From an uncultured Coriobacteriia bacterium (lineage in GTDB: Bacteria > Actinomycetota > Coriobacteriia > Anaerosomatales > PALSA-660), in assembly GCA_963726435.1 (NCBI GenBank), contig CAVSCJ010000007.1, positions 129,021-193,020 on the forward strand: a stretch of DNA of 64,000 nt, read 5' to 3'. Below, one piece after another: positions 39,485-64,000 of this stretch. The notes beneath the pieces were generated by a model. It saw nothing but the letters and a program-made list of their open reading frames with translations, did no database searches and was not told where the DNA came from. The position numbers and the translations under genes are program-made. Every line of letters begins with the position of its first letter. Position 1 is the stretch's first letter.

Positions 39485-40300
39485 GTGGACACACACAAGG
39501 TTCGACTCACCGAGGAGAAGGAGACCCTTCTCGTCCCGCTCCTGGGCAAGGCCTTGGAGAGCAAGCAGCCTCATCCGATCATCGTCGACCCCAAGGCCGA
39601 GGAGATCCTCGAGAACATCGATTACGACTTCAGGCAACTGAACGCTCCGAGGAAGACCCTCGTCATGCTCGCGATGCGAGCGAAGCAGCTCGATTCCTAC
39701 ACGCGGGACTACCTGAAGCGCAGTGACGATCCCGTGGTGCTGCACCTGGGATGTGGCCTCGACAGTCGCGTGCTTCGCGTCGGGTTCGACAGGGGCGCGT
39801 GGTACGACGTCGACTACCCCGATGTCATCGAATTGCGTCGGCAGTTCTACACCGAGACGGAGTCCTATCACATGATCGCGTCATCGGTGACGGAGCGAGG
39901 CTGGCTCGACCAGGTGGCACAGCCCGACGGCCCCGGCTTCATCGTGGCAGAGGGACTGCTCATGTACTTGCACGAAGACGAGGTGAAGCGGCTCTTCCTC
40001 GATCTGCAGAGCCGTCTGCCCGGCAGCGAGATCGTCTTCGATGCGTTCAGCACCTTGACCGCCAAGGGCGCGAATCGTCATCCGTCCATCAAGAAGACGG
40101 GGGCGCACATCTACTGGGGGATCGACGATGCGCGGCAGATCGAGCAGTGGAGCCCCGGGATCAAGCTTCTCGAAGAGTGGTTCTTCACCGACTCGGAGGA
40201 CATCCCTGCGCTCGGATTGGGAGATCGCCTCATGTTCAACGTCATGGGGACGTTGCGCATGGCGAAGCAGGCCCATCGCGTTCTTCGCTTTCGCCTGTAG
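39485..40300 (+). CDS. Class I SAM-dependent (Leu carboxyl/TcmP-like) methyltransferase
   Basis: VVLHLGCGLDSR, AEGLLMYL. 271 aa. Confidence 0.7.
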   Translation: MDTHKVRLTEEKETLLVPLLGKALESKQPHPIIVDPKAEEILENIDYDFRQLNAPRKTLVMLAMRAKQLDSYTRDYLKRSDDPVVLHLGCGLDSRVLRVGFDRGAWYDVDYPDVIELRRQFYTETESYHMIASSVTERGWLDQVAQPDGPGFIVAEGLLMYLHEDEVKRLFLDLQSRLPGSEIVFDAFSTLTAKGANRHPSIKKTGAHIYWGIDDARQIEQWSPGIKLLEEWFFTDSEDIPALGLGDRLMFNVMGTLRMAKQAHRVLRFRL

Positions 40301-50730: not shown

Positions 50731-50817
50731 GCCCAACAAGCGCTTCCATCTGACGGCCAGAAGCGCTAGCTTCGAAGTGAGGCGCAAGGCCGCAGCTGAA
50801 GCGCAACCACGTTAGGC
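50731..50817 (+). repeat. attC site
   Basis: GCCCAAC...GCGCTTCCATCTGACGGCC / GGCCGCAGCTGAAGCGC...GTTAGGC. Confidence 0.85.
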
Positions 50818-50831
50818 CGACTGACATAGAG

Positions 50832-51377
50832 GTGAGCACGGGCATGCTGCGCGTCTCCCCACCTGATAAGGCGTACTCGGAAGCGTTCATTCGGATGTTG
50901 GATGACTACGCCGCGAATGATCCCGCGCCCGGGGAGCAATTCTCGGCTGGACGGCTCGACTTCGGAGCGTACGTCGCGAAGTTGCGCGACGAGGAGCGCG
51001 GCGTTGGGCTGCCGGACGGCTACGTGCCCTGCTCTCACCGTTGGCTGATCGACCGCGGGGAGATTGCGGGCGTCGTGCGCGTTCGGCACAGCATCGCTCA
51101 CCCGCTACTGTCGCAAGAGGGCGGTCACATCGGATACGACATTCCGCCGTCGTGCAGGCGTCGCGGCAACGGGTTGGCCGCCCTCGTCGTCGGGCTGGAC
51201 CATGCGAGTGAGCTTCGGCTTACCCGCGTACTACTGTGTGCGGCCGCGAGCAACACGCCGTCGCGCGCAATCATCGAAAGGTGTGGCGGGCGGCTCGAGA
51301 GCGAGCACTACTCGAGACGCCTCGGGTGCGCAGTCTGCCGATACTGGATCGACGTACCGCAATCCCCAGCGGCCTAA
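50832..51377 (+). CDS. GNAT-like acetyltransferase (cassette), paralogue of 48779..49330
   Basis: GGHIGYDIPPSCRRRGNG. Collinear similarity to the 48779 product. The TAA stop lies inside R''. Confidence 0.7.
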   Translation: MSTGMLRVSPPDKAYSEAFIRMLDDYAANDPAPGEQFSAGRLDFGAYVAKLRDEERGVGLPDGYVPCSHRWLIDRGEIAGVVRVRHSIAHPLLSQEGGHIGYDIPPSCRRRGNGLAALVVGLDHASELRLTRVLLCAAASNTPSRAIIERCGGRLESEHYSRRLGCAVCRYWIDVPQSPAA

Positions 51378-51433
51378 CAAGCGCATCATTAGTGTCACTC
51401 TGCCCCCGTCGGGATGCCTGACGTTCGTCAGGT
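51372..51433 (+). repeat. attC site, either left portion or a complete 62-bp site; its relation to the IS is ambiguous
   Basis: R'' GCCTAAC (51372-78; CGGCCTAAC is a 9/9 complement of the cassette start GTTAGGCCG at 50811). L'' AAGCGCATC ... GATGC. GTCAGGT at 51427-33. Confidence 0.6.
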
Positions 51434-52737
51434 AGCCTCGGTCTCGACGGCGGGGTGACCCGAATCGGATCTGTCGCCTTCATGGCTGACTTTCAGGTGT
51501 TATGTCCCCTGCCGCCGGGAACCGAGGGGTCGTCGTCGTGACCTGATAGGAGCCTGGCCTAGAGGCCCCAGCTAAGGCGTGTCCGCCGACGATCCCCGAG
51601 CTCGGATGCCTCCGACGGAAGGGGACGGTCATGATCGTAGTCGGGATAGACCCGCACATGAAGACCCACACGGCGGTCGCCGTCGATGCGGTTACGGGCG
51701 TGAGCATCGCCGAGAGGACCGTCACCTGTGACGGTACCGGGCACGACGAGCTGCTCGCCTGGGCGAGGGGTCTGGATGCGGATCGCCGCTTCGCTATCGA
51801 GGACTGCCGACACGTTTCGGGAAGGCTCGAGCGCCACCTGCTCCCAAGGGGAGAGCGGGTGGTGCGTGTGCCGCCCAAGATGATGGCAGGGGCGCGTTCC
51901 TCAGCACGCACCTACGGCAAGTCGGACCCGATCGACGCGGCGTGCGTGGCTCGCGCCGCGCTGCGTGAGCCCGATCTGCCAGAAGCTGTGCTGACGGGTC
52001 CCGAACACGACGTGCGCCTGCTCTCCGACCACCGCGACGACCTCGTTGACGAGCGCAAACGCATCCAGAAGCGCCTGAGGTGGAACTGCCACGACCTCGA
52101 GGTGGGACTCGAGCTGCCGCCGAGGGTGCTGGACCGCTACGTGTGGCTGGACCGGCTGGAGGCGGCGCTGCGCGCATTGCCGCAGACCATGCGCCGGCGT
52201 GTCGCGCTCGACCAGCTCTCGCGCTGTCGCGAACTCACGAGAGAGATCCGCTCGCTCGAACGCGAGATCCGCGGGCTCATGCGTGACCTCGCACCCGACC
52301 TGCTCGCCATCCCGGGCTGCTCGGCCCTTTGCGCCGCCCAGCTCGTCGGGCAGACCGCGGGGGCCTCGCGCTTCAGAAGCGAGTCCGCCTTCGCGATGCA
52401 CACGGGATGCGCACCGCTGCCGGTGTCCTCGGGCAAGTCGACGCGCCACCGCCTCAATCGATGCGGAAACCGACGCCTCAACTCCACGATCCACATGATC
52501 GCGGTAACCCAGGCCAGGATGCACCCGCCTGCGATCGCCTACATGGAGCGCAAACAGGCCGAGGGGATGAGCTACCGAGAGGCACTGCGCTGCCTCAAGC
52601 GACACATCGCCCGGGTGGTCTTCAAGACGATGCAGCGAGCGGAGCACCTGCAGGCGGGGGAGGTCGATATCGGCAACCTTCCGCCCAAGTTCTATCGCCG
52701 TTGCCGTGTAGGATTGACATAGGAGCAACACCTGACG
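51417..52737 (+). mobile_element. IS110-family insertion sequence (ends approximate)
   Basis: The DEDD/Transposase_20 gene is flanked by the 7-nt direct repeat CCTGACG (51417-23 and 52731-37). The left end has about 208 nt of non-coding sequence and the right end about 10-15 nt. TCAGGTGTT (about 51492) and AACACCTGA (52727-35) form an inverted pair. Confidence 0.7.
51631..52722 (+). CDS. IS110-family (DEDD) transposase/recombinase
   Basis: MIVVGIDPHMKTHTAVAVD. C-terminal LLAIPGCSALCAAQLVGQTAGASRFRSESAFAMHTGCAPLPVSSGKSTRHRLNRCGNRRLN. Confidence 0.9.
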   Translation: MIVVGIDPHMKTHTAVAVDAVTGVSIAERTVTCDGTGHDELLAWARGLDADRRFAIEDCRHVSGRLERHLLPRGERVVRVPPKMMAGARSSARTYGKSDPIDAACVARAALREPDLPEAVLTGPEHDVRLLSDHRDDLVDERKRIQKRLRWNCHDLEVGLELPPRVLDRYVWLDRLEAALRALPQTMRRRVALDQLSRCRELTREIRSLEREIRGLMRDLAPDLLAIPGCSALCAAQLVGQTAGASRFRSESAFAMHTGCAPLPVSSGKSTRHRLNRCGNRRLNSTIHMIAVTQARMHPPAIAYMERKQAEGMSYREALRCLKRHIARVVFKTMQRAEHLQAGEVDIGNLPPKFYRRCRVGLT

Positions 52738-52772
52738 CGCTTCGCTCGCAGGTTATCCGTAAGCCGTTAGCC
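52738..52772 (+). repeat. attC right portion with R' GTTAGCC
   Basis: GCGCTT (complement of AAGCGC at 51379-84) ... GTTAGCC (52766-72). GTTAGCCAG is a 9/9 complement of CTGGCTAAC at 54182-90. Confidence 0.55.
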
Positions 52773-52785
52773 AGAGGGGGGACGC

Positions 52786-53508
52786 ATGGGGATTCTCTAC
52801 CCTGCGATGAAACGTTGTCCGGAATGCGGGCAAATTGCCGTAGCACCGGATTACTTCCACGATGGTGACTACTGCTTCCCAAGTCACGGTGGTTGCGGCC
52901 ACCATTTCCCCAATTTGACCATCACAGCAGACGGCCTCACGAAGGGGATGGCACTTGACCCCTACAAACACCCCGGCTCCGGCTATTCCTTCTTTGGCGG
53001 GTTGGTTCACGAGCTCAAGTACTACACCACTCTGTCCAACGCACAGAAACGCGCCCTAGTCCATAAGGCCGTTGTCGAGATCGGGAGACGGGGGGCCGTC
53101 GAGACCCTGGTCGGGAACGCCAGGAACTTGCTAGTTGTTCCAGCACCATCTTCTAAGCACAGGACTGTTCAGCACGTGTATGAGATAGCCAGGGGCGTAG
53201 CTGGCTCGCGGTATCAGTACCTTGAGGCTCTAGTGAAGTCCACGAGTACTGAGTCAAAGACCATGACGCACGGCGGCAAGTACCAGAGAGGGGACTTCCG
53301 CTGCAACTACCTCTTGAATGGTTACTCAGTTCTCATTGTTGATGATACGTATGGAGAAGGCGCAACTCTGGAGGCTTGCATAGACGTGCTGCGCACATCA
53401 AAGGCCGACGACGTCTACTTCCTGTCACTCTGCAAAAACATGGGCGGCGGTATCAAACAGTCGGACGCGAACCCAGGCATCATCTTCGATGACGATGTCC
53501 CGTTCTGA
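52786..53508 (+). CDS. ComF-like phosphoribosyltransferase-domain protein with an N-terminal zinc ribbon (cassette)
   Basis: CPECG...C..SHGGCGHH. VVPAPSSKHR. PRT loop VLIVDDTYGEGATL. RBS AGAGGGGGG. Spot count 53 G+C in the first 100 nt. Confidence 0.7.
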   Translation: MGILYPAMKRCPECGQIAVAPDYFHDGDYCFPSHGGCGHHFPNLTITADGLTKGMALDPYKHPGSGYSFFGGLVHELKYYTTLSNAQKRALVHKAVVEIGRRGAVETLVGNARNLLVVPAPSSKHRTVQHVYEIARGVAGSRYQYLEALVKSTSTESKTMTHGGKYQRGDFRCNYLLNGYSVLIVDDTYGEGATLEACIDVLRTSKADDVYFLSLCKNMGGGIKQSDANPGIIFDDDVPF

Positions 53509-53538
53509 TTCGTCACGGCTCTAGTAGCGGGAGCAACA

Positions 53539-54171
53539 ATGGCTGTTGTGTTCATCAGCGGGTCAAGAACGATTCCGTACCTGCCAGCAGAGGTCCAGGC
53601 AAGAGTCGACAACATGATCGACAACGGGCTGCACATCGTTGTCGGAGACTCAGAGCGAGGCGTGGACAATCTGATCGTGTCGTACCTCTACGATCGCGGC
53701 TACATCAACGTCTCCATCTACTCGGTCCACTCCAAGAGCAGAATTGGGCGGCTGCTGCCGGATTGGTCATTCCAGCGGATTGCTCCCGACATCCTCGCTC
53801 GACAGGACAAGAACGGGAACACCACGAATCGTCGCGAGCTCGAAACGTACAAAGACAGGGCCATGTGCGATGTGTGCAACTTCGCTCTCGTGATATGGCA
53901 GGACACCTACACGAACCCTAGATTCGGGCAGACATCGGTCAGCGCAGGCAGTCTCAGGAATGCAGTCCAGCTCTTGCTCGCCGGGAAGCCTGTCACCATG
54001 TACCACAGGAGCGAAGGCGACATGCTTGAGGAGGACTTCACACATCGCGAATTCAGATCGATCTCCGCATTGGAGGAGTTCGTGAAGAGTCTGGACGGCA
54101 TCGTGCAGGCGAGGTTCTCGAAGATGCTGAAGGACGAGTCGAAAATGGAGCAGCAGCATTTGGACCTCTGA
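53539..54171 (+). CDS. SLOG/DUF2493-like (DprA/LOG-type Rossmann) protein with a helical C-terminal extension (cassette)
   Basis: VVFISGSR...HIVVGDSERGVDNL...NFALVIWQD...SAGSLRNAVQLLLAGKPVTMY matches the 'GSR / GGA.GAD / WDG.S.GT / gKpV' pattern of that fold. Assigned by motif only. Confidence 0.5.
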   Translation: MAVVFISGSRTIPYLPAEVQARVDNMIDNGLHIVVGDSERGVDNLIVSYLYDRGYINVSIYSVHSKSRIGRLLPDWSFQRIAPDILARQDKNGNTTNRRELETYKDRAMCDVCNFALVIWQDTYTNPRFGQTSVSAGSLRNAVQLLLAGKPVTMYHRSEGDMLEEDFTHREFRSISALEEFVKSLDGIVQARFSKMLKDESKMEQQHLDL

Positions 54172-54183
54172 TGTTGGGGCCCT

Positions 54184-54243
54184 GGCTAACAATGAGATCG
54201 AGCGGCCTCACTGCGTTCGCCGCTCATCTCAAACACGTTAGGT
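54184..54243 (+). repeat. attC site (60-bp class)
   Basis: GGCTAAC...GAGATCGAGCGGC / GCCGCTCATCTC...GTTAGGT. Same class as 56484-56543. Confidence 0.88.
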
Positions 54244-54317
54244 GCGACGTTCGCCCTGGCGTACACGAGGCTTGTGACAGGGTAGTATCCTTGTCGCAGC
54301 CCAGATGGAGGGAATGC

Positions 54318-54530
54318 ATGTCGGTTTCACTGCTGATTGAACTGGAGCAGGAGAATGACGGCCGCTGGATTGCGGAGGTCGCCGATCTTCCTGGCGTCTT
54401 GGCATACGGCTCGACTCACGACGAAGCCATCGCACACGTTCAGGCACTCGCCCTCAGAGTGATCGCTGACCGCCTTGAGAACGAAGAGGCCGGGCGCGAG
54501 TATCTCAGCATCTCCTTCAACGCCGCGTGA
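54318..54530 (+). CDS. hicB: HicB-family antitoxin (cassette)
   Basis: LIELEQENDGRWIAEVADLPGVLAYGSTHDEAIAHVQAL. Confidence 0.85.
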   Translation: MSVSLLIELEQENDGRWIAEVADLPGVLAYGSTHDEAIAHVQALALRVIADRLENEEAGREYLSISFNAA

Positions 54531-54739
54531 GTGACTGGCCAAGCAGCAGCGCGAAGAAGGTTCTCGCCGCACTGCTCCGAATCGGATGGACGGTCAAACG
54601 CCAGACAGGTTCCCATCGCGTCCTTAGCCGCCCCGGTTGGTCCGACTTTGTCTTCGCATTCCACGATCGGGAACCGATCGGCCCGCGGATGCTCGCCCGA
54701 ATCGCAAAACACACTGGCCTCACACCAGACGACTTGTAG
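54527..54739 (+). CDS. hicA: HicA-family mRNA interferase toxin (cassette)
   Basis: AKKVLAALLRIGWTVKRQTGSHRVLSRPG. GTG overlaps the hicB stop. Confidence 0.85.
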   Translation: MSDWPSSSAKKVLAALLRIGWTVKRQTGSHRVLSRPGWSDFVFAFHDREPIGPRMLARIAKHTGLTPDDL

Positions 54740-54753
54740 CAGGCCTTGCGCGC

Positions 54754-54854
54754 ACCTAACCAGCGCGTCAAGTCGGACGGCGCGCCCTGGGAGCTAGAAT
54801 CGAAGGGCCGGGCGGCGAAAAGCGCGCCGCCGCTTACGCGCAACACCGTTAGCC
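54754..54854 (+). repeat. attC site (about 100-bp class)
   Basis: ACCTAAC...GCGCGTCAAGTCGGACGGCGCGCC / GGCGCGCCGCCGCTTACGCGC...GTTAGCC, with three bulged bases. CGCACCTAAC is a 10/10 complement of the cassette start at 54237. Confidence 0.9.
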
Positions 54855-54888
54855 AGACAGGGGACTGCGAGCGAGGGAGGAGAACGAA

Positions 54889-55281
54889 GTGTCACTGCAA
54901 TCATGTCGTGAATGCGGGAAGGACGTTTCCACGGAGGCGGCAGCGTGTCCGTACTGCGGGGCTGCAGCACCGACGCGGGAGAAGTCCGGCGACTGGGTAC
55001 CATGTCCCAACTGCGGCAGCTCGAATACACGCAGGATCGGGCCCGGCATCATGGGTTTCGCGTCGCTGGTGATGGGCAGTTGTCTGCTGTGGATTCCCGT
55101 CGTGGGTTGGGTCCTCGGACCAATCATGATTCTGGTGGCCGTAGCGTTCTGGGTTTCCGCTCTGATTCCGCGAGGCAAGATCTCGTTCCAATGCCAATCG
55201 TGCAAGAAGTGGTTCACTGTGCCCAAAGCTGACTTGATCAAGCCCTCGCAGGAAGCCTCCGCGATTGACGCGGGGGACTGA
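54889..55281 (+). CDS. Triple zinc-ribbon membrane protein (cassette)
   Basis: CRECG..(11)..CPYCG, CPNCGS, two TM segments, CQSCKKWF. RBS GGGAGGAG. GTG start. Confidence 0.6.
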   Translation: MSLQSCRECGKDVSTEAAACPYCGAAAPTREKSGDWVPCPNCGSSNTRRIGPGIMGFASLVMGSCLLWIPVVGWVLGPIMILVAVAFWVSALIPRGKISFQCQSCKKWFTVPKADLIKPSQEASAIDAGD

Positions 55282-55388
55282 CGGACGTCTCATCTCTCGC
55301 GCTGCCAAGCGGTGCCCCGGGCTCCCCGGCCGCTTAGCGAGACGATATGGGAACGCCAGATTGGGCGAACATCGGCTCAGCCGCTGCT

Positions 55389-55489
55389 GGCTAACAACGG
55401 CGTCAAGTCGGACGGCGCGCCCTGAGAGCTAGAATCGAAGGGCCGGGCGGCGAAAGGCGCGCCGCCGCTTACGCCGAACACCGTTAGCA
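55389..55489 (+). repeat. attC site (about 100-bp class)
   Basis: GGCTAAC...GTCAAGTCGGACGGCGCGCC...GGCGCGCCGCCGCTTACGCC...GTTAGCA. Near-identical to 54754-54854. Confidence 0.9.
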
Positions 55490-55611
55490 CCACCCTCGCA
55501 ATTCCGGCTCGCTCGCATGTGGGGTGCTGACCTCGCGATTCAGGCTCGGCGACTCATGTGCTTCATGTATCATTCGCGTGGCCGCAAGTGACCTGCTACG
55601 GAAGGACTTCG

Positions 55612-55821
55612 ATGAACACGGCAAACCCCAACGGACGCGAGCTTTGGCAAATGATGCTCGAGACCGATCCCGGCCTCACCGATGGTGATTCGCGCACGTA
55701 CTGGAAGATGAACGCGGCGATCCAGGCGGTCGCAAGCAGCATCGACGCGTCGTCGGACGCGGTGCGCGAGGTCCTCGGCAACTACGATCCAGCAACCGAT
55801 GAACTGGATCCTGGTGAGTAG
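55612..55821 (+). CDS. Small acidic hypothetical protein (cassette)
   Basis: RBS GGAAGGA then ATG 55612. 69 aa. Confidence 0.45.
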   Translation: MNTANPNGRELWQMMLETDPGLTDGDSRTYWKMNAAIQAVASSIDASSDAVREVLGNYDPATDELDPGE

Positions 55822-55906
55822 ACTGCGCGAACGCGTACGGCCGGTTCTTGGCAGTCCGTGCCCGGCCATCAGCGGAAATGCCATCTGCGCCTGAGGAGCG
55901 GACAAA

Positions 55907-56476
55907 TTGATCCTACGAACCCTGCTCATCGCCTCTGTGTTGTGCCTCGTTCTCGTGACCGGTTGCGCAGGCAGCAGAAGCCAATCGGCTGAACAACCTG
56001 TCACGAGCCAGGCGGCTCCAGCCGCCGCCGCGCCAGATCCCCTGGCGCCCATTTCTGCCTACATGGCGGACGCAAACAGGCTCATCAAGGAGCAGGAGAA
56101 GGCGATAGGCGATTGCACCCGCCTCTTGCTCAAGTACGAGCAACTCTCTTCCTACGACAAAGAGTCGCTTCACTTCGCGCTGAACGAGGTTGATTCTGCG
56201 ACTTCCTCATACGCGTCTCTGGCGCCTCCATCCTCTCTTGCCAAGGTGCATGGTCTAAACAGGCAGGCGATGGCCCAACTGGGAATCGCCCTGCGAAGTT
56301 ACAACCTCTACTTAGCCAGCAATCGCGTCATGCCTAGCGACATGAAGGCGGCGGAATCCAACTTCGCCGGCGCTGCCCTCTATCGCGACAAGGCGAACGA
56401 GGAGCTGCAGCGCGTCAGCAGCGACCTCGGGATTCAGCTCCGACCTTTCGCGGTGATTGACGTTGGTCAGTTCTAG
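55907..56476 (+). CDS. Lipoprotein, helical (cassette)
   Basis: RBS GAGGAG then TTG 55907. Lipobox LVTGC. Confidence 0.55.
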   Translation: MILRTLLIASVLCLVLVTGCAGSRSQSAEQPVTSQAAPAAAAPDPLAPISAYMADANRLIKEQEKAIGDCTRLLLKYEQLSSYDKESLHFALNEVDSATSSYASLAPPSSLAKVHGLNRQAMAQLGIALRSYNLYLASNRVMPSDMKAAESNFAGAALYRDKANEELQRVSSDLGIQLRPFAVIDVGQF

Positions 56477-56483
56477 AGGGGTG

Positions 56484-56543
56484 TGCTAACCAAGAGATCG
56501 AGCGGACTCACTTCGTTCGCCGCTCATCTCTAAACCGTTAGGT
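56484..56543 (+). repeat. attC site (60-bp class)
   Basis: TGCTAAC...GAGATCGAGCGGA / GCCGCTCATCTC...GTTAGGT. Confidence 0.88.
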
Positions 56544-56709
56544 GAGAGCTTACACGCGGTCTTGCGCGTATCAGGAGATACGCGCCTGAACGGTTCATCG
56601 GCGGTCTGACAACAGGGTGTAGAGGGAAGGGCAGGCCGGTCCTCTCCCGGGGTCCGATCCACTCGATTTCGCGCACCTGAGCAGGGCTGACGCACAGTCC
56701 CGTGGCCTC

Positions 56710-56808
56710 ACCTAACAATCGCGTCAAGTCGGACGGCGCGCCTGAAGTCTAGAATCGAAGAGCCGGGCGGCGAAAGTCGCGCCGCCACTTACGCGAAAGA
56801 CGTTAGGC
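56710..56808 (+). repeat. attC site (about 100-bp class) of an ORF-less cassette
   Basis: ACCTAAC...GTCAAGTCGGACGGCGCGCC...GCGCCGCCACTTACGCG...GTTAGGC. CTCACCTAAC is a 10/10 complement of the cassette start at 56537. Confidence 0.88.
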
Positions 56809-56832
56809 GGAACGCTACCAAGAGGGGGCTAC

Positions 56833-57168
56833 ATGGCAGGACAATTCCTTCCCATCATCAAGGCAGTCGCACCATATCTGACGCAGATTGCCTCCACAGC
56901 GATTCCTGCCTTCACCTCGAAACCCGCAGCAATCGCGAAGGAAGACCCCGTCATCGCCAAGCAGATCGAGGAACTGCAGACAGCCGCGACCCAGAACGCG
57001 GAGTCCGTTCGGGTTCTGGCCGAGAACCTTCAGCAAGCCATACAAGGCATCGAGACAGCAGCACAGGAGGCGAACAGGCGGGCCGCTACCCTCAGAGCGA
57101 TGCTCTTCATCGCACTCGGCCTCTCAGGACTGTCTCTGCTGCTCAGCGTCTATCTGCTCGCCATGTGA
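56833..57168 (+). CDS. Small helical protein with a C-terminal TM anchor (cassette)
   Basis: 111 aa. C-terminal MLFIALGLSGLSLLLSVYLLAM. Confidence 0.5.
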   Translation: MAGQFLPIIKAVAPYLTQIASTAIPAFTSKPAAIAKEDPVIAKQIEELQTAATQNAESVRVLAENLQQAIQGIETAAQEANRRAATLRAMLFIALGLSGLSLLLSVYLLAM

Positions 57169-57286
57169 TGCCCAAGAACTTGCTAAGTCTTGTAGGGTCG
57201 GAGAGTGCGACTACGGTCTGCCCGCGCGTAGACGGCGCGCGCTCTCGAGCTTTCGCCAGATGATTTACTCTAGCGAGCCGTTGTCC

Positions 57287-57387
57287 GCCTAACAAGCACT
57301 TCGACCCGAAGACCTCGGCAAGTAAGCTTGCGCTTCCTCCGAGGCTCTGCGAGCCTCGGTCTCGGGTCAAGTGCAACACCGTTCGAT
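57287..57387 (+). repeat. attC site
   Basis: GCCTAAC...GCACTTCGACCCGAAGACCTCGG / CCTCGGTCTCGGGTCAAGTGC...GTTCGAT. Confidence 0.85.
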
Positions 57388-58189
57388 GGAACTTGAGACA
57401 ATGGACGACAGCAGTGCCTATCGATCCGTCGAGCTCGCCGCACTCTACGATGCCGTGTACGCAAACTGGGGTGACATCGCCTTCTGGCAAGTGATGGTTG
57501 CGGACGTGCAAGACGGTCCGCTCCTCGAGCTGGGCTGCGGAACCGGCCGCGTCCTATTACCCCTCGCGCGAGCTGGCCACAGGGTCACCGGTCTCGATCT
57601 CGGGACGCACATGCTTGCGCGCTGCCGCGCCAAGCTTCTAGCAGAACAGCCTGGTGTACGCGAGAGGGTGATGCTGCTCGAAGCAGACATGACGTTGTTC
57701 GACCTCGATTGCCGTTTTGCCAGCATCTACTGCTCATGCGGCACGTTCCACCACCTCAGCACGAAGGAGCAGCAGCTGGCGTGTCTCGAACGGTGCAGGC
57801 ACCATATGCTGCCGCGTGGAACGCTGGTTCTCGATCTCTTCAATCCCGTTCCCGCGCGCAGCAGGGTCAGCGGCGACGAGCCAGCCAGCGGCGGCGCTGA
57901 GGTGGTCGACTGGACCGATGGTCGGCGTGTCCGCAGCACAGCGACTGTGTTTGACTGCGGGGGACCACAACAGTGGAACGACTGCGAGGTGATCTACGAG
58001 ATTCTCGAGGCAGACGGCACCGCGAGTCAGGTCATTGAGACGTTTCCAATGCGCTTCGTGTTCCGGCAAGAACTCGAGCATCTCCTGGCCCGCTGCGGCT
58101 TCCACATCGTCGCCCTGTATGGCGACCATGATCGATCGGAGTACACCGACGAGTCACCCGGCATGATCGTCGTTGCCACGCCTGACTAG
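57386..58189 (+). CDS. Class I SAM-dependent methyltransferase (cassette)
   Basis: LLELGCGTGRVLLPLA, VTGLDL, LVLDLFNP. ATG 57386 overlaps the R' core GTTCGAT. An alternative ATG is at 57401. Confidence 0.75.
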   Translation: MELETMDDSSAYRSVELAALYDAVYANWGDIAFWQVMVADVQDGPLLELGCGTGRVLLPLARAGHRVTGLDLGTHMLARCRAKLLAEQPGVRERVMLLEADMTLFDLDCRFASIYCSCGTFHHLSTKEQQLACLERCRHHMLPRGTLVLDLFNPVPARSRVSGDEPASGGAEVVDWTDGRRVRSTATVFDCGGPQQWNDCEVIYEILEADGTASQVIETFPMRFVFRQELEHLLARCGFHIVALYGDHDRSEYTDESPGMIVVATPD

Positions 58190-58255
58190 CCATCGGGGCT
58201 CGCCCAAGGGCAGAACGTCGCTCGTGCAACGGGGAGGTTGGAATGGACCGCGTCC

Positions 58256-58343
58256 ATCGAACAAGGGCGTCAAGCAGACGCGCACAGACCGCGCGTAGAA
58301 TGCAGCGCGGCGGGCGCGCTGCTTACGCCCAACCACGTTAGGC
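58256..58343 (+). repeat. attC site
   Basis: ATCGAAC...GGGCGTCAAGCAGACGCGC / GCGCGCTGCTTACGCCC...GTTAGGC. TCCATCGAAC is a 10/10 complement of the cassette start at 57381. Confidence 0.88.
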
Positions 58344-58427
58344 AGAAAAGGGTGGGGCGGAGTGGTCGGCGCGTCTAGGGTGTTCGCGTCAGTCGGCCTC
58401 GTCGCCTGAGTGTGAGAGCGGGCATCC

Positions 58428-58964
58428 GTGAAGTACGTCGCGCTGCTGCGTGGGATCAATGTCGGCAAGGGTGCTCGCGTGCCCATGAAGGCCCTGAAGG
58501 CTCTTCTCGAGGGGCTCGGGCTCAGCGACGTCACCACCTATCTGAACTCGGGCAATGCGATATTCAGTTCATCTCTGAGCGTCCTCGACCTGACGCGTCA
58601 GCTCGAGGACGAGCTTGAGCGGGCGTTCGGCGAGAAGATCCCGACTTTGGTCAAGACGTCAACGGAGGTCATCGCGATCGCGGAGTCGATACCGAGCGAG
58701 TGGGGAAGCGGCGAGGATGAACAGACCTATGTCGCGTACCTGTTCAATGACGTCGACCAGCCGGGTCTAGTTCCGGAGCTGCCGGTCAAGATGGAGTTCA
58801 TGTCCATTTTCTACACACCTGGGGCAATCGTCTGGAACATCAAGCGAGAGAACTACAATCGCAGCCACATCACCAAGATCGTGGAACACAGCTCCTACGC
58901 TCGGATGACCACAAGGAACGTCAACACGGCGAGGAAGCTTGCTGCGCTTTGTGCTGAGTCCTGA
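58428..58964 (+). CDS. DUF1697-family protein (cassette)
   Basis: MKYVALLRGINVGKGARVPMKALKALLE.LG...V.TYLNSGN is the characteristic N-terminus of that family. Confidence 0.7.
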   Translation: MKYVALLRGINVGKGARVPMKALKALLEGLGLSDVTTYLNSGNAIFSSSLSVLDLTRQLEDELERAFGEKIPTLVKTSTEVIAIAESIPSEWGSGEDEQTYVAYLFNDVDQPGLVPELPVKMEFMSIFYTPGAIVWNIKRENYNRSHITKIVEHSSYARMTTRNVNTARKLAALCAES

Positions 58965-58980
58965 CCGCGACGCCGCTGCC

Positions 58981-59078
58981 CAGCAACGGCGTCAAGTCGG
59001 ACGGCACGCCGTTCAAGATAGAATCGAAGGGCCGGGCGACGAAGGGCGCGCCGCCGCTTACGCCGAACAACGTTAGAC
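58981..59078 (+). repeat. attC site (about 100-bp class, degenerate R'')
   Basis: CAGCAAC...GGCGTCAAGTCGGACGGCACGCC / GGCGCGCCGCCGCTTACGCC...GTTAGAC. Confidence 0.8.
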
Positions 59079-59169
59079 AGACGCGGCGTCGGTGTCCCGG
59101 TGACCAAGTCAGTGGCTCCGCCGTCTTCTCTGTGTATGCTTGAGGCATCCGTATCGCGGAGGGGGCGAC

Positions 59170-59873
59170 ATGGAACGGCCAGCACCTGGACTGAGAGAAC
59201 GTGTTTGGGACCTTCTTGAGGTCACCGAAGACAGGGAGACCGGCAAGGTCAACTGGGACTGGGTCGACGTCTTCCTTCTGGTTCTTATCCTGGCGAGCGT
59301 CGTGGTGGTCATCCTCGAGACGGTTGAGAGCCTGGTCCGCCAGTACGCCGGCTTCTTCTTGGTGTTCGACATCTTCACCGTCGCGGTCTTCACAGTGGAG
59401 TACATCGTCCGGATCTGGGCGTGCACGGCAGATCCCAGGTACGAGGAGCCCTTCCGCGGGAGACTCCGGTACGCGACCAGCTTCTATGGAGTGATCGACC
59501 TACTCGCGGTGCTGCCCTTCTACGCGGCCCTTGTTCTCCCCGTCACCCTGCTCGATCTCCGCTTTCTCAGAATCCTTCGCTTGATGCGATTCGCTCGCGT
59601 GTTGAAGATCGGCCGCTATTCGGAGTCGTTGGACCGCCTGAAGGACGTCTTCAGCTCGAAGAAGTCGGACCTGGGGGTCGCGTTTGTCGGCGTGCTCGTC
59701 GTCTTGGTGTTCGCATCGAGCGTCATGTACCACGTGGAGAACGCGGCCCAGCCCGATTCGTTCTCCAGCATTCCCGCTTCCATGTGGTGGGGGATATCGG
59801 CATTGACCACCGTCGGCTACGGCGACATCCAGCCAATCACCCCGTTCGGTAAGGTGCTGGGAGGCCTCATTCA
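59170..59873 (+). CDS. Voltage-sensor-containing K+ channel, truncated just after the selectivity filter
   Basis: S4-like LRFLRILRLMRFARVLKIGR. Filter TTVGYGD. After GKVLGGLI the reading frame runs into lower-GC unrelated sequence. Confidence 0.75.
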
Positions 59874-60042
59874 GCTAAAGTATCATCTGCCCATGAACGA
59901 TGAAAAGATTAAGAAAATCGCGTTGCTTGGCGTCAGCGGGCTCAAAAGGGTCATTGTCGATAGCATCGGCCAGGAGATGAGCGAATCCAAGCAAGAGATG
60001 TTCTCCTCGGCCGATGAAGCCAAAGAGTGGCTGGTGTCATAA
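59874..60042 (+). other. C-terminal fragment of a STAS/SpoIIAA-like protein (in frame with the truncated channel)
   Basis: ...KKIALLGVSGLKRVIVDSIG...FSSADEAKEWLVS*. Low-GC codon usage. Fold assignment is tentative. Confidence 0.35.
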
Positions 60043-60127
60043 ATGGCGATTTTCACAAATTATCAAAAATAGGGTATTATTAGTGGTATTGAGATACATA
60101 TCTCAATCAAACTGAAAGGGAGGAACA

Positions 60128-60320
60128 ATGGCTTTCAAGTATAAGAATTCGAAAGGCGTCACCTATATTCTGCACGGCAAAGACCGTGTCACATCTACTG
60201 GCAAGAAAGCAACCCTGTACTTTTTCTCGAAAGAGGAAAAGGAAGGTGCGTTGGATGCAGGTGCCTTGCTACCAAGTTGCTGAAACCGCCAACGGCTTGT
60301 TAGTCTTAAAGAAGAAATAA
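60128..60320 (+). CDS. Small conserved hypothetical protein, frameshifted near 60255-60262
   Basis: RBS AAGGGAGG then ATG 60128. MAFKYKNSKGVTYILHGKDRVTSTGKKATLYFFSKEEKEGALDA, then in another frame VPCYQVAETANGLLVLKKK*. Confidence 0.5.
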
Positions 60321-60330
60321 ATATGTGTTA

Positions 60331-60373
60331 GCTACGGGCTTGCCTGGACGTTCTTTCCAGGCAGACCCGTAGC
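60331..60373 (+). terminator. Hairpin terminator after the small ORF
   Basis: GCTACGGGCTTGCCTGGA-CGTTCTT-TCCAGGCAGACCCGTAGC, then GTTTCAAAA. Confidence 0.55.
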
Positions 60374-60600
60374 GTTTCAAAATGGACCTCGCAGGGTGAA
60401 TATTCGGAAGTAAAAATGAGGTCCAGCCCTTTTTTGATACTTTAGTTATTTTTGTATCTCCCCCCCTTTTATGTTATTTTGTAATTACTCAGCCCTACCA
60501 GGCTGGAAGTATGAATTGCTCCCTTCGGACCCTACAGGGCCCTTCGGGAGCATAATGAGGGGATCTGCGAGTTTTTTTTCAGGCGGGCGAAGCCCGCGAT

Positions 60601-61053
60601 TTAGAAAAAGCCATTGCGGCTGAGCAATAACGTTATTTTATTGTTGCACAATGTGCAACAATAAAATAACGTTTCCCGGATGTCATTCCGGGCGCAGCCT
60701 GCGGGGATGAGTGCATTTAAAGCCGCCAAAATAGCCTCAGGCGGTTCTGCCTTGCTGACGAAAGCATCCGCGCCGGCGGCCAGCGCAGCCTGGCGGGCTT
60801 CGAATTTACTGCTTAAAGCAATCACCTTCAAGTTGGGACAGCAACAAAGCAGATCCTTAGATAGTTTGCTTTCATGCAGACCCGGCAATTCCCAATCGAT
60901 CAGGACAACCAGTGGGCAGTCTTTTTTCAGATGTTCTATCAAACCCGGCATATCAGAAACCTCAGATACCTCTATCTGATGCGACTCTTGCTCCAACAGC
61001 AAGCGCAGGGCAGAACAGACTTCATGGTTGTCATCGGCCAGTAATATTCTCAT
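60601..61053 (-). CDS. Single-domain response regulator (REC)
   Basis: MRILLADDNHEV...LIDWELPGL...VIALSS...AGADAFVSKAEPPE. The 3' tail overlaps a 22-bp perfect palindrome, so the true stop is uncertain. Confidence 0.7.
   Translation of the reverse strand: MRILLADDNHEVCSALRLLLEQESHQIEVSEVSDMPGLIEHLKKDCPLVVLIDWELPGLHESKLSKDLLCCCPNLKVIALSSKFEARQAALAAGADAFVSKAEPPEAILAALNALIPAGCARNDIRETLFYCCTLCNNKITLLLSRNGFF
60629..60673. repeat. Perfect 22-bp-arm inverted repeat
   Basis: AACGTTATTTTATTGTTGCACA-A-TGTGCAACAATAAAATAACGTT. Confidence 0.9.
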
Positions 61054-61458
61054 CCGTAGCTCTCTCTTAGCTTCTATCCGAAAATTATTTTGCAGAGAAC
61101 TATTTTTCGGATAGGCTCTCAATAATCATTTAATCGGGTTAAGCATAAGACTTCCCTTCCAACTGCACATCGGATGACTGGTGAGATAAATACTGGACGT
61201 TTAGGGGGGCTTTTTCCTGGTCAAGCGGCCAGGTGGTATTTTATTTAAGGATGCTACACTGTAGTGGCAGGCAAACCTTTAAACCGTTTTAAGATATATG
61301 TCATTTTCCAAGCAGATCAAGTATGCCTTTTTCTTTGAATGGCAATCATGTACTATTAAAATGTTAAAACTGGTCCCCTACAGGGCCCTTCGGGGCACAT
61401 GATGGTCATTTTGTGATGGAATTTCCATCACAAAATAAAGCTTCATATAAAGTGCACA

Positions 61459-62113
61459 TTGGAAGGACGAGAATATGGTGAGAATAAAGCAATTCGCGTG
61501 GTCATCGTTGACGATCACACTGTGGTTCGCAGCGGTCTGAGCGCCTTTTTAATGGTTTTCGATGACCTGGATTTCGTGGGCGAAGCCGGCAGCGGCGAGG
61601 AAGCGATTCGCGTCTGCAAGGCGCTGAAACCGGACGTGGTGCTGATGGATCTGATCATGCCGGGTATGGATGGCGCCGCCGCCACGCGTGAAATCCGGGC
61701 GTGCTGCGCCGATACGCAGGTCATTGCTTTGACCAGTTTTAAAAGAACAGGAATTAGTCCAGGGGGTCTTGCAGGCCGGGGCGATTGGATATTTGCTCAA
61801 AAACGTCAACGCGGATGAATTGGCAAACGCCATCCGCGCCGCGCATGCCGGGCGGCCGACCCTGGCCCCCGAGGCCACCCATGCCCTGATCCACGCCAGC
61901 CAAAACCCGCCCGCGGTTGGCGCCGACCTGACTGCACGCGAACGCGAAATCCTCTCCCTTATGGTTTCAGGTCTTTCCAACCCTGAAATTGCGGATCAAC
62001 TGGTGGTAAGCCGCTCCACGGTAAAATTTCACGTCAGCAGCATCCTCTCCAAGCTGGCTGTGAACAGCCGTACGCAGGCCGTCAGTGTGGCTCTGCAAAA
62101 CAAGCTGATATGA
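61459..62113 (+). CDS. NarL/FixJ (LuxR-type HTH) response regulator, frameshifted at the AAAA run near 61741
   Basis: [16 protein letters not shown]...[14 protein letters not shown]...VIALTSFK, then +1 [21 protein letters not shown]...[40 protein letters not shown]. The start is uncertain: TTG 61459, or ATG 61475 with another shift. Confidence 0.8.
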
Positions 62114-63481
62114 TACGAAAACAGCGCCAGGGTCAAAGCCCGGCAAGGTTTTTTCATTCCCGGCGTGATTTCCTTAAACTCATGGGGACGGCGGCCGGCG
62201 TTTCTTTTATTGAATGCCTGCGCGCCCTTTCTGAGCACCCCAACCGCCACCAGCACGAACGAAGTGCAGCTGGTCTATCAAGATTGGAGTACCGAATGGT
62301 TCCCCCCCATGACCCAGCAGATGCTGGCCCATTTATGCCGCCCATCCCGACATTCACGTCTTCTACGTGCCTGATCCGGTGGACGTCGAAGACAGCCTGC
62401 TGGAAGATATGAAGGCCTGCGTCGCGCCGGATGTCTTTGCCGCGTGCTGTTCCTTCTTCCCCATCCTGGCACAGGAAGGTCAAACGCTAAACCTGCGCCC
62501 ATACATCGAATGGACCTGGATCAAGAAACCATTCAGGATTGGGACCCGGCGCAATACCAGGCGTATCTGACCCGCGGCGGGGAACAGTATGGGCTGCCAA
62601 AGTATCACGGCGCATTGGCGCTGTACTATAACAAAGACCTGTTCGACCAGTACGGTGTGGATTATCCGGATGGCACCTGGGACCACGACGATTATCTGGC
62701 TGCCATGAAACGCCTGACCCACGATCAAAACTCGGATGGACGGATCGACCTGTGGGGGAGCATTGTAGATATATCCTGGGACCGCATCCAGGTATATGTC
62801 AACGCCTGGGGAGGCCATTTTGTCGACCCCGCGGATTCCACGCGCAGCCGCATCAGGGCGATGCGCCAGCCTTAGAGGCCATGGGATTGGCTGGCGCAGC
62901 GCGCATGTGGGATGACCAGGTGATGGCCAGGCCGCTCGATGTGCAGAATATGGGGCCGTTGCAGGCCTTTATATCTCAGAAAGTCGCCATGGCCGAGGAT
63001 GGTTCCTGGGCGCTCAAAGACATTTTGAGCAAGGCCGATTTCAGAATTGGCGTGGCCCCGCTCCCTATCTGGTCCCGCCCGGCGGGTCACCATCGCGACC
63101 ACGGATGGTTTTGGTATTTACCGGGGCACCCGCTACCCGCAGGCCACCTGGGAACTGATGAAATTTTTGATCAGCAAAGAATACGGTCTGGCCATGGCTC
63201 GGGCCAATTTCCTCCAACCGGCGCGGGCTTCTCTGGTGCAGGACTGGGTTGGGTTCATTCGCCAGGAATATCCTGAAAAAACCCGGGATATGGATATTGC
63301 CGTATTTGCCGAAGGGCATACCCGGGGATATTCTGTCGTGGCGGAAATATTCCAAAACATGGTCGAAGCCAAACGCATCGTTTACGCCGCCTGGGACCAA
63401 ATTTACCTGCTGGGAGAACAACCCGTATCGTTGATGAAAGACGTTTCGCTCCAGGTAGAAAAAGCGCAAAAGGCATCCTAG
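62110..63481 (+). pseudogene. ABC-transporter extracellular solute-binding protein (family 1, sugar type), broken into at least 6 frame segments
   Basis: Tat signal SRRDFLKLMGTAAGV. YGLPKYHGALALYYNKDLF. ORFs 62110, 62165, 62367, 62444, 62752 and 63047 are collinear pieces of one SBP. Confidence 0.7.
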
Positions 63482-63485
63482 TCGC

Positions 63486-64000
63486 ATGAAAAGACTCTTC
63501 CAACGCCAGGGACTGCGCACCAAAATCATTATCTGGTCTTTTGTACCCACGCCGTCATTCTGGCAGCCGTGGCCCTGATCACCTATGCCGCCTACCAAAG
63601 CGTTACCGATGACCTGGTCCTGGCCAAAAACCAGGAAGTAACTCGCCTCTCGGCGGGCCAGCTTTCGGCAGAGTTGAAGACCTACACCGAATTGCTGGCC
63701 GAAATCGCAAACAACACCGATATGCGCCAGGTCAATCCGGTTTTGCAGCACATCACCCTGCAGCGTTACAGCAATCGCCTGATCATTTTCGATGGCGGCG
63801 TTTTCATCCTGGATAATTTTGGCACGCTGATTTCAGCCCTGCCCGAAAGGCCGGGCGATCTAGGGCAGGTCTGGTTTTACTGTGAGTATTTCCGCCAGAT
63901 CGTGCATGGTTCCCGGCCGGTATTTTCGAATATCCTGGCAGATGGCCCGCAGCAAACGGATGTCATCGTTGCAGCCGTGCCCATCCTGGGCAATCAGGGC
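63486..64000 (+). CDS. Sensor protein N-terminus (TM plus Cache-like periplasmic domain), partial and frameshifted near 63550
   Basis: MKRLFQRQGLRTKIIIWSFVPT, then +1 VILAAVALITYAAYQSVTDDLVLAKNQEVTRLSAGQL...VIVAAVPILGNQG. It runs off the window end. Confidence 0.55.

Follow-up and report, generated by a model that had tools for sequence, protein, structure and literature searches.

The bridge recombinases of the IS110 group of insertion sequences (IS), including IS621, were described by Durrant et al. 2024 (PMC11208160) and Hiraizumi et al. 2024 (PMC11208158), with PDB 8wt6 as a structure of IS621. A related set, the IS1111-attC elements, inserts near the 5' end of attC sites and antisense to the cassette genes (PMC3001079). 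In ISKpn4 and ISPst6, the seekRNA is encoded downstream of the transposase gene, and IS1111-type elements carry subterminal inverted repeats of 11-13 bp with terminal extensions of 7 and 3 nucleotides (nt) (PMC11187229). A third system, ISPpu10, is a structure-gated bridge recombinase, which reportedly needs a stem-loop in the target DNA as well as complementarity to its RNA (bioRxiv 10.64898/2026.03.19.712850). The element presented here lies at 51389-52729 of a 64,000-nt stretch of DNA (hereafter, the window) from contig CAVSCJ010000007.1 of an uncultured Coriobacteriia bacterium and, judged from its sequence, is an intact IS110-group insertion sequence with a DEDD/serine recombinase. We hold with good confidence that it carries a bridge RNA in its left end, is inserted in sense orientation in a 60-nt attC site, and has guides tuned to attC, and that this specialisation arose independently of the IS1111-attC group.

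The limits of the element, its gene and its subterminal motifs are the following:

51389..52729, + strand: IS110-group insertion sequence, 1341 bp, without target duplication (46 copies, IS-only contigs and intact sites)
51631..52722, + strand: recombinase gene with DEDD RuvC-like and Tnp domains (profile matches, IS621 alignment and residue motifs)
51393..51397, + strand: left short subterminal inverted repeat TGTCA (sequence; conserved in all copies)
52714..52719, + strand: right-end motif TTGACA, which overlaps the final codons of the gene (retained even by the sister clade)

The recombinase gene is intact and encodes a product of 363 residues, which matches PF01548 (DEDD_Tnp_IS110) at 2.6e-17 and PF02371 at 7.9e-18, and scores 188 bits against the NF033542 profile, 'IS110 family RNA-guided transposase', for which the cut-off is 140. 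Residues D7, E57, D99 and D102 of the DEDD RuvC-like domain were located by motif, and S267 is aligned with the catalytic S241 of IS621; the protein has the N-terminal DEDD domain and the C-terminal Tnp domain with a conserved serine that mark the IS110 group. Although the domain pair and the catalytic residues are those of IS621, the similarity is distant, given that structure 8wt6 matches the recombinase at E=3e-7 and in the C-terminal domain only. The nearest named relatives found are actinobacterial IS110-family transposases from Rhodococcus, Streptomyces and Mycobacterium plasmids, with 47-55% identity.

A protein-based scan of one genome per species yielded 61 related loci, nearly all of them from metagenome-assembled Coriobacteriia or Actinomycetota, and a DNA search found copies of the element in 21 of 40 relatives of the same order. 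After duplicates were removed, 46 distinct related copies with flanks remained, whose outer flanks are unrelated to one another. Homology among these copies begins at TTAGTGTCAC (51389) and stops at ..GGAGCAAC or ..TTGACATAGGAGCAAC (52729), with nothing beyond, and contigs that contain only the IS (1347-1358 bp) are consistent with the same limits, as are the intact attC sites presented below. In four identical copies within one 20-kb array (L014, L015, L016 and L031), the base directly left of TTGG/TTAG differs, as does everything to the right of ..GCAAC. A left end at GCCTAAC (51372), near which the BLAST matches and the IS-only contigs begin, was considered and rejected: the 17 nt at 51372-51388 differ between copies that are otherwise identical, change together with the guide described below, and are therefore target sequence.

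The four identical copies are found on a single contig (CAVYJL010000002.1, 172-197 kb), each in a different attC of the array, which looks like a recent burst of transposition inside an integron. Two of the IS-only contigs, L007 (1358 bp) and L010 (1347 bp), are binned in metagenome-assembled genomes labelled Gammaproteobacteria, for which mis-binning of a repeat contig is a likelier explanation than a real host range.

Within the element, 242 nt of non-coding DNA (51389-51630) precede the coding sequence and 7 nt follow the stop codon. A preliminary description of the window, made from the letters alone, had rightly placed nearly all of the non-coding DNA upstream of the recombinase, yet at about 208 nt it had made this arm too short. 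A long left end with a very short right end is the arrangement of the IS110 group and of IS621. The repeats TGTCA (51393-51397) and TGACA (52715-52719) bracket a donor core of 14 nt (TAGGAGCAAC + TTAG), and both are kept in all copies; no subterminal repeats of 11-13 nt are present in the element, only these of 5 nt. Short repeats around a donor core of about 14 nt, together with the absence of target duplication, are again shared with IS621 and characterise the IS110 group. The TTGACA at 52714-52719 could serve as the -35 box of a circle-junction promoter, by analogy with the junction promoters known in the IS110-type family (PMC11187229), and a consensus scan of 51300-52850 for promoters and terminators found none.

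The two parts of the attC site that the element interrupts are the following:

51372..51388, + strand: 5' part of the interrupted attC and left target (R'' box GCCTAAC at 51372-51378, start of the inner arm AAGCGCATCA)
52730..52772, + strand: 3' part of the interrupted attC and right target (rest of the inner arm ACCTGACG.., loop, second arm CAGGTTATCCG, R' box GTTAGCC at 52766-52772)

The insertion lies between ..AAGCGCATCA, which ends in ..ATCA at 51388, and ACCTGACG.., which begins at 52730, at a distance of 10 nt past the AAC of the R'' box. When the IS is removed, the site measures 60 nt from GCCTAAC to GTTAGCC, and its inner arms, CGCAT-C-AACCTG and CAGGTT-ATCCG, pair with one mismatch. 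Many relatives have 60-nt attC sites that are free of the IS and share the 43 nt of right flank (52730-52772) at 85-97% identity; RYYYAAC-AAxCGGATCA directly precedes these 43 nt there, so that the class reads R''-AAxCGGAT-C-AACCTG-loop-CAGGTT-ATCCG-spacer-R'. In the same genome, the joined flanks AAGCGCATCA+ACCTGA (AAGCGCATCA+ACCTGACG) are uninterrupted in at least three attC sites, beside the integrase gene, one of which (L098) is identical over 25 nt across the junction. Given that the intact sites equal flank plus flank, the element inserted between ..ATCA and ACCTGACG without duplication, as is expected of the site-specific insertion of an IS110-group element. Paralogous intact attC sites were used for this comparison in place of an orthologous one: the search for an orthologous empty site returned a relative of the GNAT cassette at only 68%, in genome G019, with no recognisable attC after it. 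A hybrid attC, with halves from different sites and an apparent spacer of 23 nt, was also considered and rejected, as the true ends give a normal 60-nt attC.

The surrounding array supports the attC assignment. The motif GCCTAAC or its complement occurs 10 times, versus 2.8 expected, between 41.8 and 58.3 kb of the window, and the neighbouring sites fold as canonical attC with R'' box, R' box and an unpaired spacer of 5-6 nt; boxes of the form RYYYAAC (R'') and GTTRRRY (R') surround an imperfect palindrome, and do so in an array. The R'' box GCCTAAC contains the stop codon of an upstream GNAT cassette ORF (open reading frame), and the element joins this cassette to a downstream two-gene cassette, with the recombinase gene on the same strand as the cassette ORFs, i.e., in sense orientation. 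An integron integrase gene (TIGR02249, 397 bits) is located on the same contig, about 142 kb upstream. These domain matches and this context bear out the preliminary description in its central proposal, an IS110-family element within an attC, and the motifs it listed (GCCTAAC at 51372-51378, CCTGACG at 51417-51423 and 52731-52737, GTTAGCC at 52766-52772) and the ORF 51631..52722 all lie where it had placed them.

The anatomy which it drew from these motifs is a different matter. It had the element run from about 51417 or 51424 to 52730 or 52737, with CCTGACG as a 7-nt direct repeat at the two junctions and with removal of the element restoring an inner attC stem through GATG next to GCGCTT. 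Both copies of CCTGACG do exist, and GATG+CGCTT is a 9/9 complement of AAGCGCATC. However, the homology among copies reaches 28 nt further left, to 51389, and the alignment of the 46 copies shows the proposed ends to be off by 28-35 nt on the left and by 1-8 nt on the right. The left CCTGACG belongs to the element itself, as one arm of a hairpin that is conserved and covaries, while the right one is attC sequence, also present in intact IS-free sites, and the motif is no rarer than chance, with 13 occurrences in the window versus 17 expected. The preliminary description had itself named comparison with uninterrupted attC sites as a check and a differing junction at an empty site as a refutation, and intact sites do show another junction, in which ..ATCA runs directly into ACCTGACG and no 7-nt duplication is seen. 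The apparent stem is a coincidence, made of IS sequence on one side and attC loop sequence on the other, and the target is not the GATG/GCGCTT region but the R''-proximal arm (..GCGCATCA|ACCTGA..). This anatomy, to which we give practically no credence, is already refuted by the intact sites and the copy alignment.

Several observations concern the attC class as such. The 60-nt class, with a nearly invariant loop (..ACCTGACTCGCTTCGCTCGCAGGTT.., within 52730-52772), is spread across many genera of the order (L083-L096), and the identity of 85-97% between genomes is unusually high for attC sites. At L093 (about 2350-2700 on contig 6 of genome G015), an attC of the same class borders on an IS110-like right end of another kind, ..GATATAGGAGCATC, whose junction at TCGCTTCGCTCGC lies 8 nt deeper in the site; this site class may serve a second element, with an insertion point of its own.

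The left end of the element is predicted to encode a structured RNA, with the following parts:

51389..51630, + strand: left-end non-coding region, putative bridge RNA (conserved across copies; consensus fold; minimum free energy, MFE)
51415..51434, + strand: 5' hairpin, which holds the left CCTGACG and the palindrome CCTGACGTTCGTCAGG (both folds)
51438..51525, + strand: target-binding arm with basal stem, internal loop and distal hairpin (both folds)
51526..51596, + strand: donor-binding arm with basal stem, internal loop and distal hairpin (inverted repeat I25; MFE)

In the consensus fold of 27 diverse copies (alignment A1), compensatory changes are seen at 11 pairs; folded as a single sequence, 51415-51600 has -90.4 kcal/mol and an MFE z-score of -3.57. 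Both folds concur on a 5' hairpin followed by two stem-loop arms. In alignment A1, both sides of pair 32:44 of the 5' hairpin change in 4 sequences, and compensatory changes in the target arm occur at 56:140 (8 sequences), 91:105 (6) and 94:102 (4), so that compensated pairs stand on both sides of the first internal loop. The basal stem of the donor arm pairs 51526-51538 with 51584-51596; 10 of its 11 positions can pair in 16-27 of the 27 sequences, with variation among GC, GU and AU and between UA and CG, while position 157-211 pairs in only 3 of 27. A scan of 50800-53300 with Rfam 15 at E<=10 returned no bridge-RNA family and only chance matches to snoZ278 and CRISPR-DR20. The consensus fold also pairs 51394-51405 with the purine-rich 51617-51626 just before the start codon, with little covariation; by this model, the pairing might couple RNA folding to translation.

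Four segments of the two internal loops match target or donor DNA:

51463..51471, + strand: left target guide AAUCGGAUC, same sense as left flank positions -10..-2 (mutual information; shuffle test)
51493..51501, + strand: right target guide UCAGGU (51493-51498) followed by G-UU (51499-51501) (shuffle test; near-invariant GUU)
51546..51553, + strand: left donor guide AUAGGAGC (sequence; nearly invariant)
51572..51577, + strand: right donor guide CUAA (51572-51575) followed by GG (shuffle test)

In the window copy, 7 of 9 positions agree between the left target guide, which lies on the 5' side of the first loop, and the left flank. Over the copies, the mean match is 7.35/9, versus 5.95 when flanks are shuffled among copies, a value as high being reached in 0 of 5000 shuffles, and flank position -4 shares 1.03 bits of mutual information with column 51469. 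On the 3' side of the same loop, UCAGGU is the complement of the right flank ACCUGA (6/6 in the window copy), with a mean of 4.83/6 versus 4.29 shuffled and again 0/5000 as high. In the second loop, AUAGGAGC on the 5' side has the same sense as ATAGGAGC in the right end (52718-52725), and CUAA on the 3' side is complementary to TTAG, with which the element begins. As this start varies between TTAG, TTAA, TTGG and TTGA, the right donor guide changes accordingly: scored at positions 3-4 of the left end (AG/AA/GG/GA), the match is 1.89/2 versus 1.24 shuffled, with 0/5000 as high. A structured RNA with two loops that match target and donor half-sites, as in the IS110 group, is what these results describe. 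As in IS621, the 5' sides of the loops have the sense of the left half-sites (9 and 8 nt) and their 3' sides are complementary to the right half-sites (6 and 4-6 nt).

The bases that follow the right-hand guides match the other partner, which is a further likeness to IS621. The G-UU at 51499-51501, with its nearly invariant GUU, complements the AAC in which the element ends, and the right donor guide is followed by GG, which complements the target C-C just left of the crossover. By analogy, the former looks like a handshake segment, and together these bases resemble the 'handshake guides' described for IS621 (PMC11208158).

An alternative account would have the protein read the sequence or shape of attC, with the left end as a mere promoter or 5' untranslated region and the guide-flank matches as a product of shared ancestry. 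In its favour, conservation of the attC arm would by itself produce matches between kindred copies and kindred sites, with no RNA guiding, and the kinship of the copies inflates the shuffle statistics. Because of this inflation, independent cases of retargeting form the stronger argument, and in separate sub-lineages guide variants are indeed matched by corresponding flank variants. In L027, the left guide is CAGCGGCUC and the flank CAGCGGCTC, and the right guide is the complement of AACCG where the flank reads AACCG; in L008, L026 and L049, a guide ..GCGCGUG faces a flank ..GCGCGTG; in L065, guide AACGGCGUC accompanies flank AAGGGCGTC. At L055 (2249 onward), the left guide (UAGUCU..) and the left flank (TAGTCT..) have both changed, in a non-attC context, which on comparison of the sequences is a natural retargeting away from integrons. 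In addition, the right donor guide follows changes in the element's own first bases, a sister clade at unrelated non-attC targets has an RNA segment that matches its own flank over 8-9 nt, and RNA guiding has been shown experimentally for the protein family (PMC11208160, PMC11187229). We therefore regard recognition by the protein alone as very improbable. The comparative evidence for an RNA-guided mechanism is strong, and it supports a bridge-RNA role for the left arm, with a target loop matched to attC, as the preliminary description had proposed on the strength of position and palindromes; both the covariation and the folds agree with that proposal.

Among copies with at least 18 nt of left flank, ..AAC is found at the expected distance in 38 of 41; where the right flank is long enough, it often contains the second, complementary arm as well as a GTT box. 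A maximum-likelihood tree groups the attC-associated copies in a single clade (23 rows, support 100/100). Under a looser criterion than that behind the 'attC/other' labels of this tree, every member of the clade with a flank lies in attC-type sequence, apart from L026, where the AAC is missing. The sister clade (7 rows, from Acidimicrobiia, Dormiibacterota and others) has about 50% identity and the same element ends, but its copies are in unrelated non-attC sites, and the equivalent RNA segment matches the left flank of each copy in the same sense. The target guides of the attC clade are tuned to the R''-proximal arm, AAC-NN-GCGCWTC-N|A-S-C-N-GA. Since the guides stay tuned to this arm, the clade appears as a specialised parasite of cassette arrays in environmental Coriobacteriia.

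The IS1111-attC group (ISPa21, ISPst6, ISKpn4 and ISPa25) is reportedly the subject of work by Tetu and Holmes in 2008 and by Post and Hall in 2009. The preliminary description had compared the present element with this attC-targeting subgroup; if the element were a member, a seekRNA downstream of its gene would be expected. The two have in common that they target the 5' (R''-proximal) end of attC (PMC3001079), in an orientation-specific manner, and that they belong to one superfamily of DEDD transposases, RNA-guided in the one and probably so in the other; the likely outcome, a split attC with fusion of the neighbouring cassettes, is also common to them. However, the present RNA would be encoded upstream, with only 7 nt after the stop codon against 242 nt before the start codon, and the guides stand in the reverse order, the bottom-strand match coming first as in IS110. 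In place of repeats of 11-13 nt with extensions of 7 and 3 nt (PMC11187229), the element has 5-nt repeats with extensions of 4 and 10 nt around its 14-nt donor core, so that neither the downstream guide RNA nor the long repeats of IS1111-attC elements are found. Its position in the attC is similar, 10 nt after the AAC of R'', but its gene is sense to the cassettes, whereas IS1111-attC elements are antisense. Furthermore, the hosts of the IS1111-attC group are Proteobacteria, whereas those of the present element are environmental Coriobacteriia, and the protein is of a separate lineage whose nearest relatives are actinobacterial IS110 elements. Membership in the IS1111-attC group has, in our judgement, scarcely any probability.

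The working of the element can be proposed step by step by analogy with IS621. The left end would give rise to an RNA of about 180 nt, folded as a 5' hairpin plus two arms that each contain an internal loop; the predicted plan of 5' hairpin, target-binding arm and donor-binding arm is that of IS621. The first loop would read the target, and the second the joined ends of the excised circle (..ATAGGAGCAAC|TTAG..). A recombinase tetramer would then exchange strands between circle and attC without duplication, after which the few bases 3' of each right-hand guide would pair with the other partner, as a handshake.

Several points weigh against this account, one of which concerns the core. IS621 has a CT core dinucleotide, and elements of the IS110 group have an identical core dinucleotide in target and donor, whereas here no shared dinucleotide is visible between the donor, ..AAC|TT.., and the targets, ..TC-N|A... 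Just left of the crossover, the donor has C, and the targets of 44 insertions have C (28), G (11), A (4) or T (1); just right of it, the donor has T, and 34 of 34 targets have A. Hence, at most one base (C) is common to donor and target, and even this is mismatched in 16 of the 44 insertions. Shared cores of 2 nt were modelled at several offsets from the crossover, and none fits the junctions. Unlike in IS621, moreover, the left guides end 1 nt (target) and 3 nt (donor) before the crossover and do not cover the core. The missing shared core departs from the IS621 rule.

There are further points against the account. The left donor guide and its match in the right end are invariant in nearly all copies, which leaves no covariation to measure; the copies are kin, and the shuffle tests therefore overstate significance. 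The negative Rfam result we count as uninformative, as we take it that Rfam 15 holds no bridge-RNA family. The source genome (2.0 Mb, 7 contigs) is metagenome-assembled. Among the sequencing runs listed, none of RNA contains the sequence, and the best DNA runs have at most 10% of its sampled words. Since the left target guide matches at 7 of 9 positions and the element is present in a single copy, current activity in this genome is unproven, and we infer, rather than observe, the production of the RNA, its exact ends, the cleavage positions and any present activity.

One idea for the core, which we offer as a doubtful though conceivable one, is that this lineage, whose crossover is flush, recombines without a matched core dinucleotide, and that the attC hairpin might also gate the choice of target. 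Under it, the cleavage stagger could differ from that of IS621, or a single-strand-exchange intermediate could be resolved by replication. The target of the present element differs from that of IS621 in being a structured attC. ISPpu10 is comparable in this respect, as it too is of the IS110 family and its natural targets are repeated, hairpin-forming intergenic sequences. If true, gating by the attC hairpin, as reported for ISPpu10, would make the element a reader of both structure and sequence of integron sites.

The rest of the integron offers some further observations. The integrase gene (genome G000, contig 7, 37533-38478; L002:1320-2283) is split over two frames near L002:1505, which could be a frameshift or an assembly indel. 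Sites of attC type on the same strand follow within 1.3 kb after the integrase, from contig position 39766 onward. In RefSeq surveys, Actinobacteria were without a complete integron (PMC4889954, PMC9024848). Downstream of the element (53000-64000), the G+C content drops from about 0.66-0.70 to 0.47-0.62, through the remaining array and beyond.

Given that the RNA-guided mechanism was already known, the advance is incremental. The published attC-targeting IS that we found are all of the IS1111 group, and we found no paper on attC-targeting elements of the IS110 group, with 5' RNA. For the integrons, the elements split attC and thereby probably freeze or fuse cassettes. For the family, dozens of insertions with co-varying guides and targets would provide a ready rule book for reprogramming, and one that concerns a bridge recombinase only distantly related to IS621. 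RNA-guided IS110-family elements would have specialised on attC at least twice, once in the IS1111 group, as published, and once in the IS110 group, as presented here.

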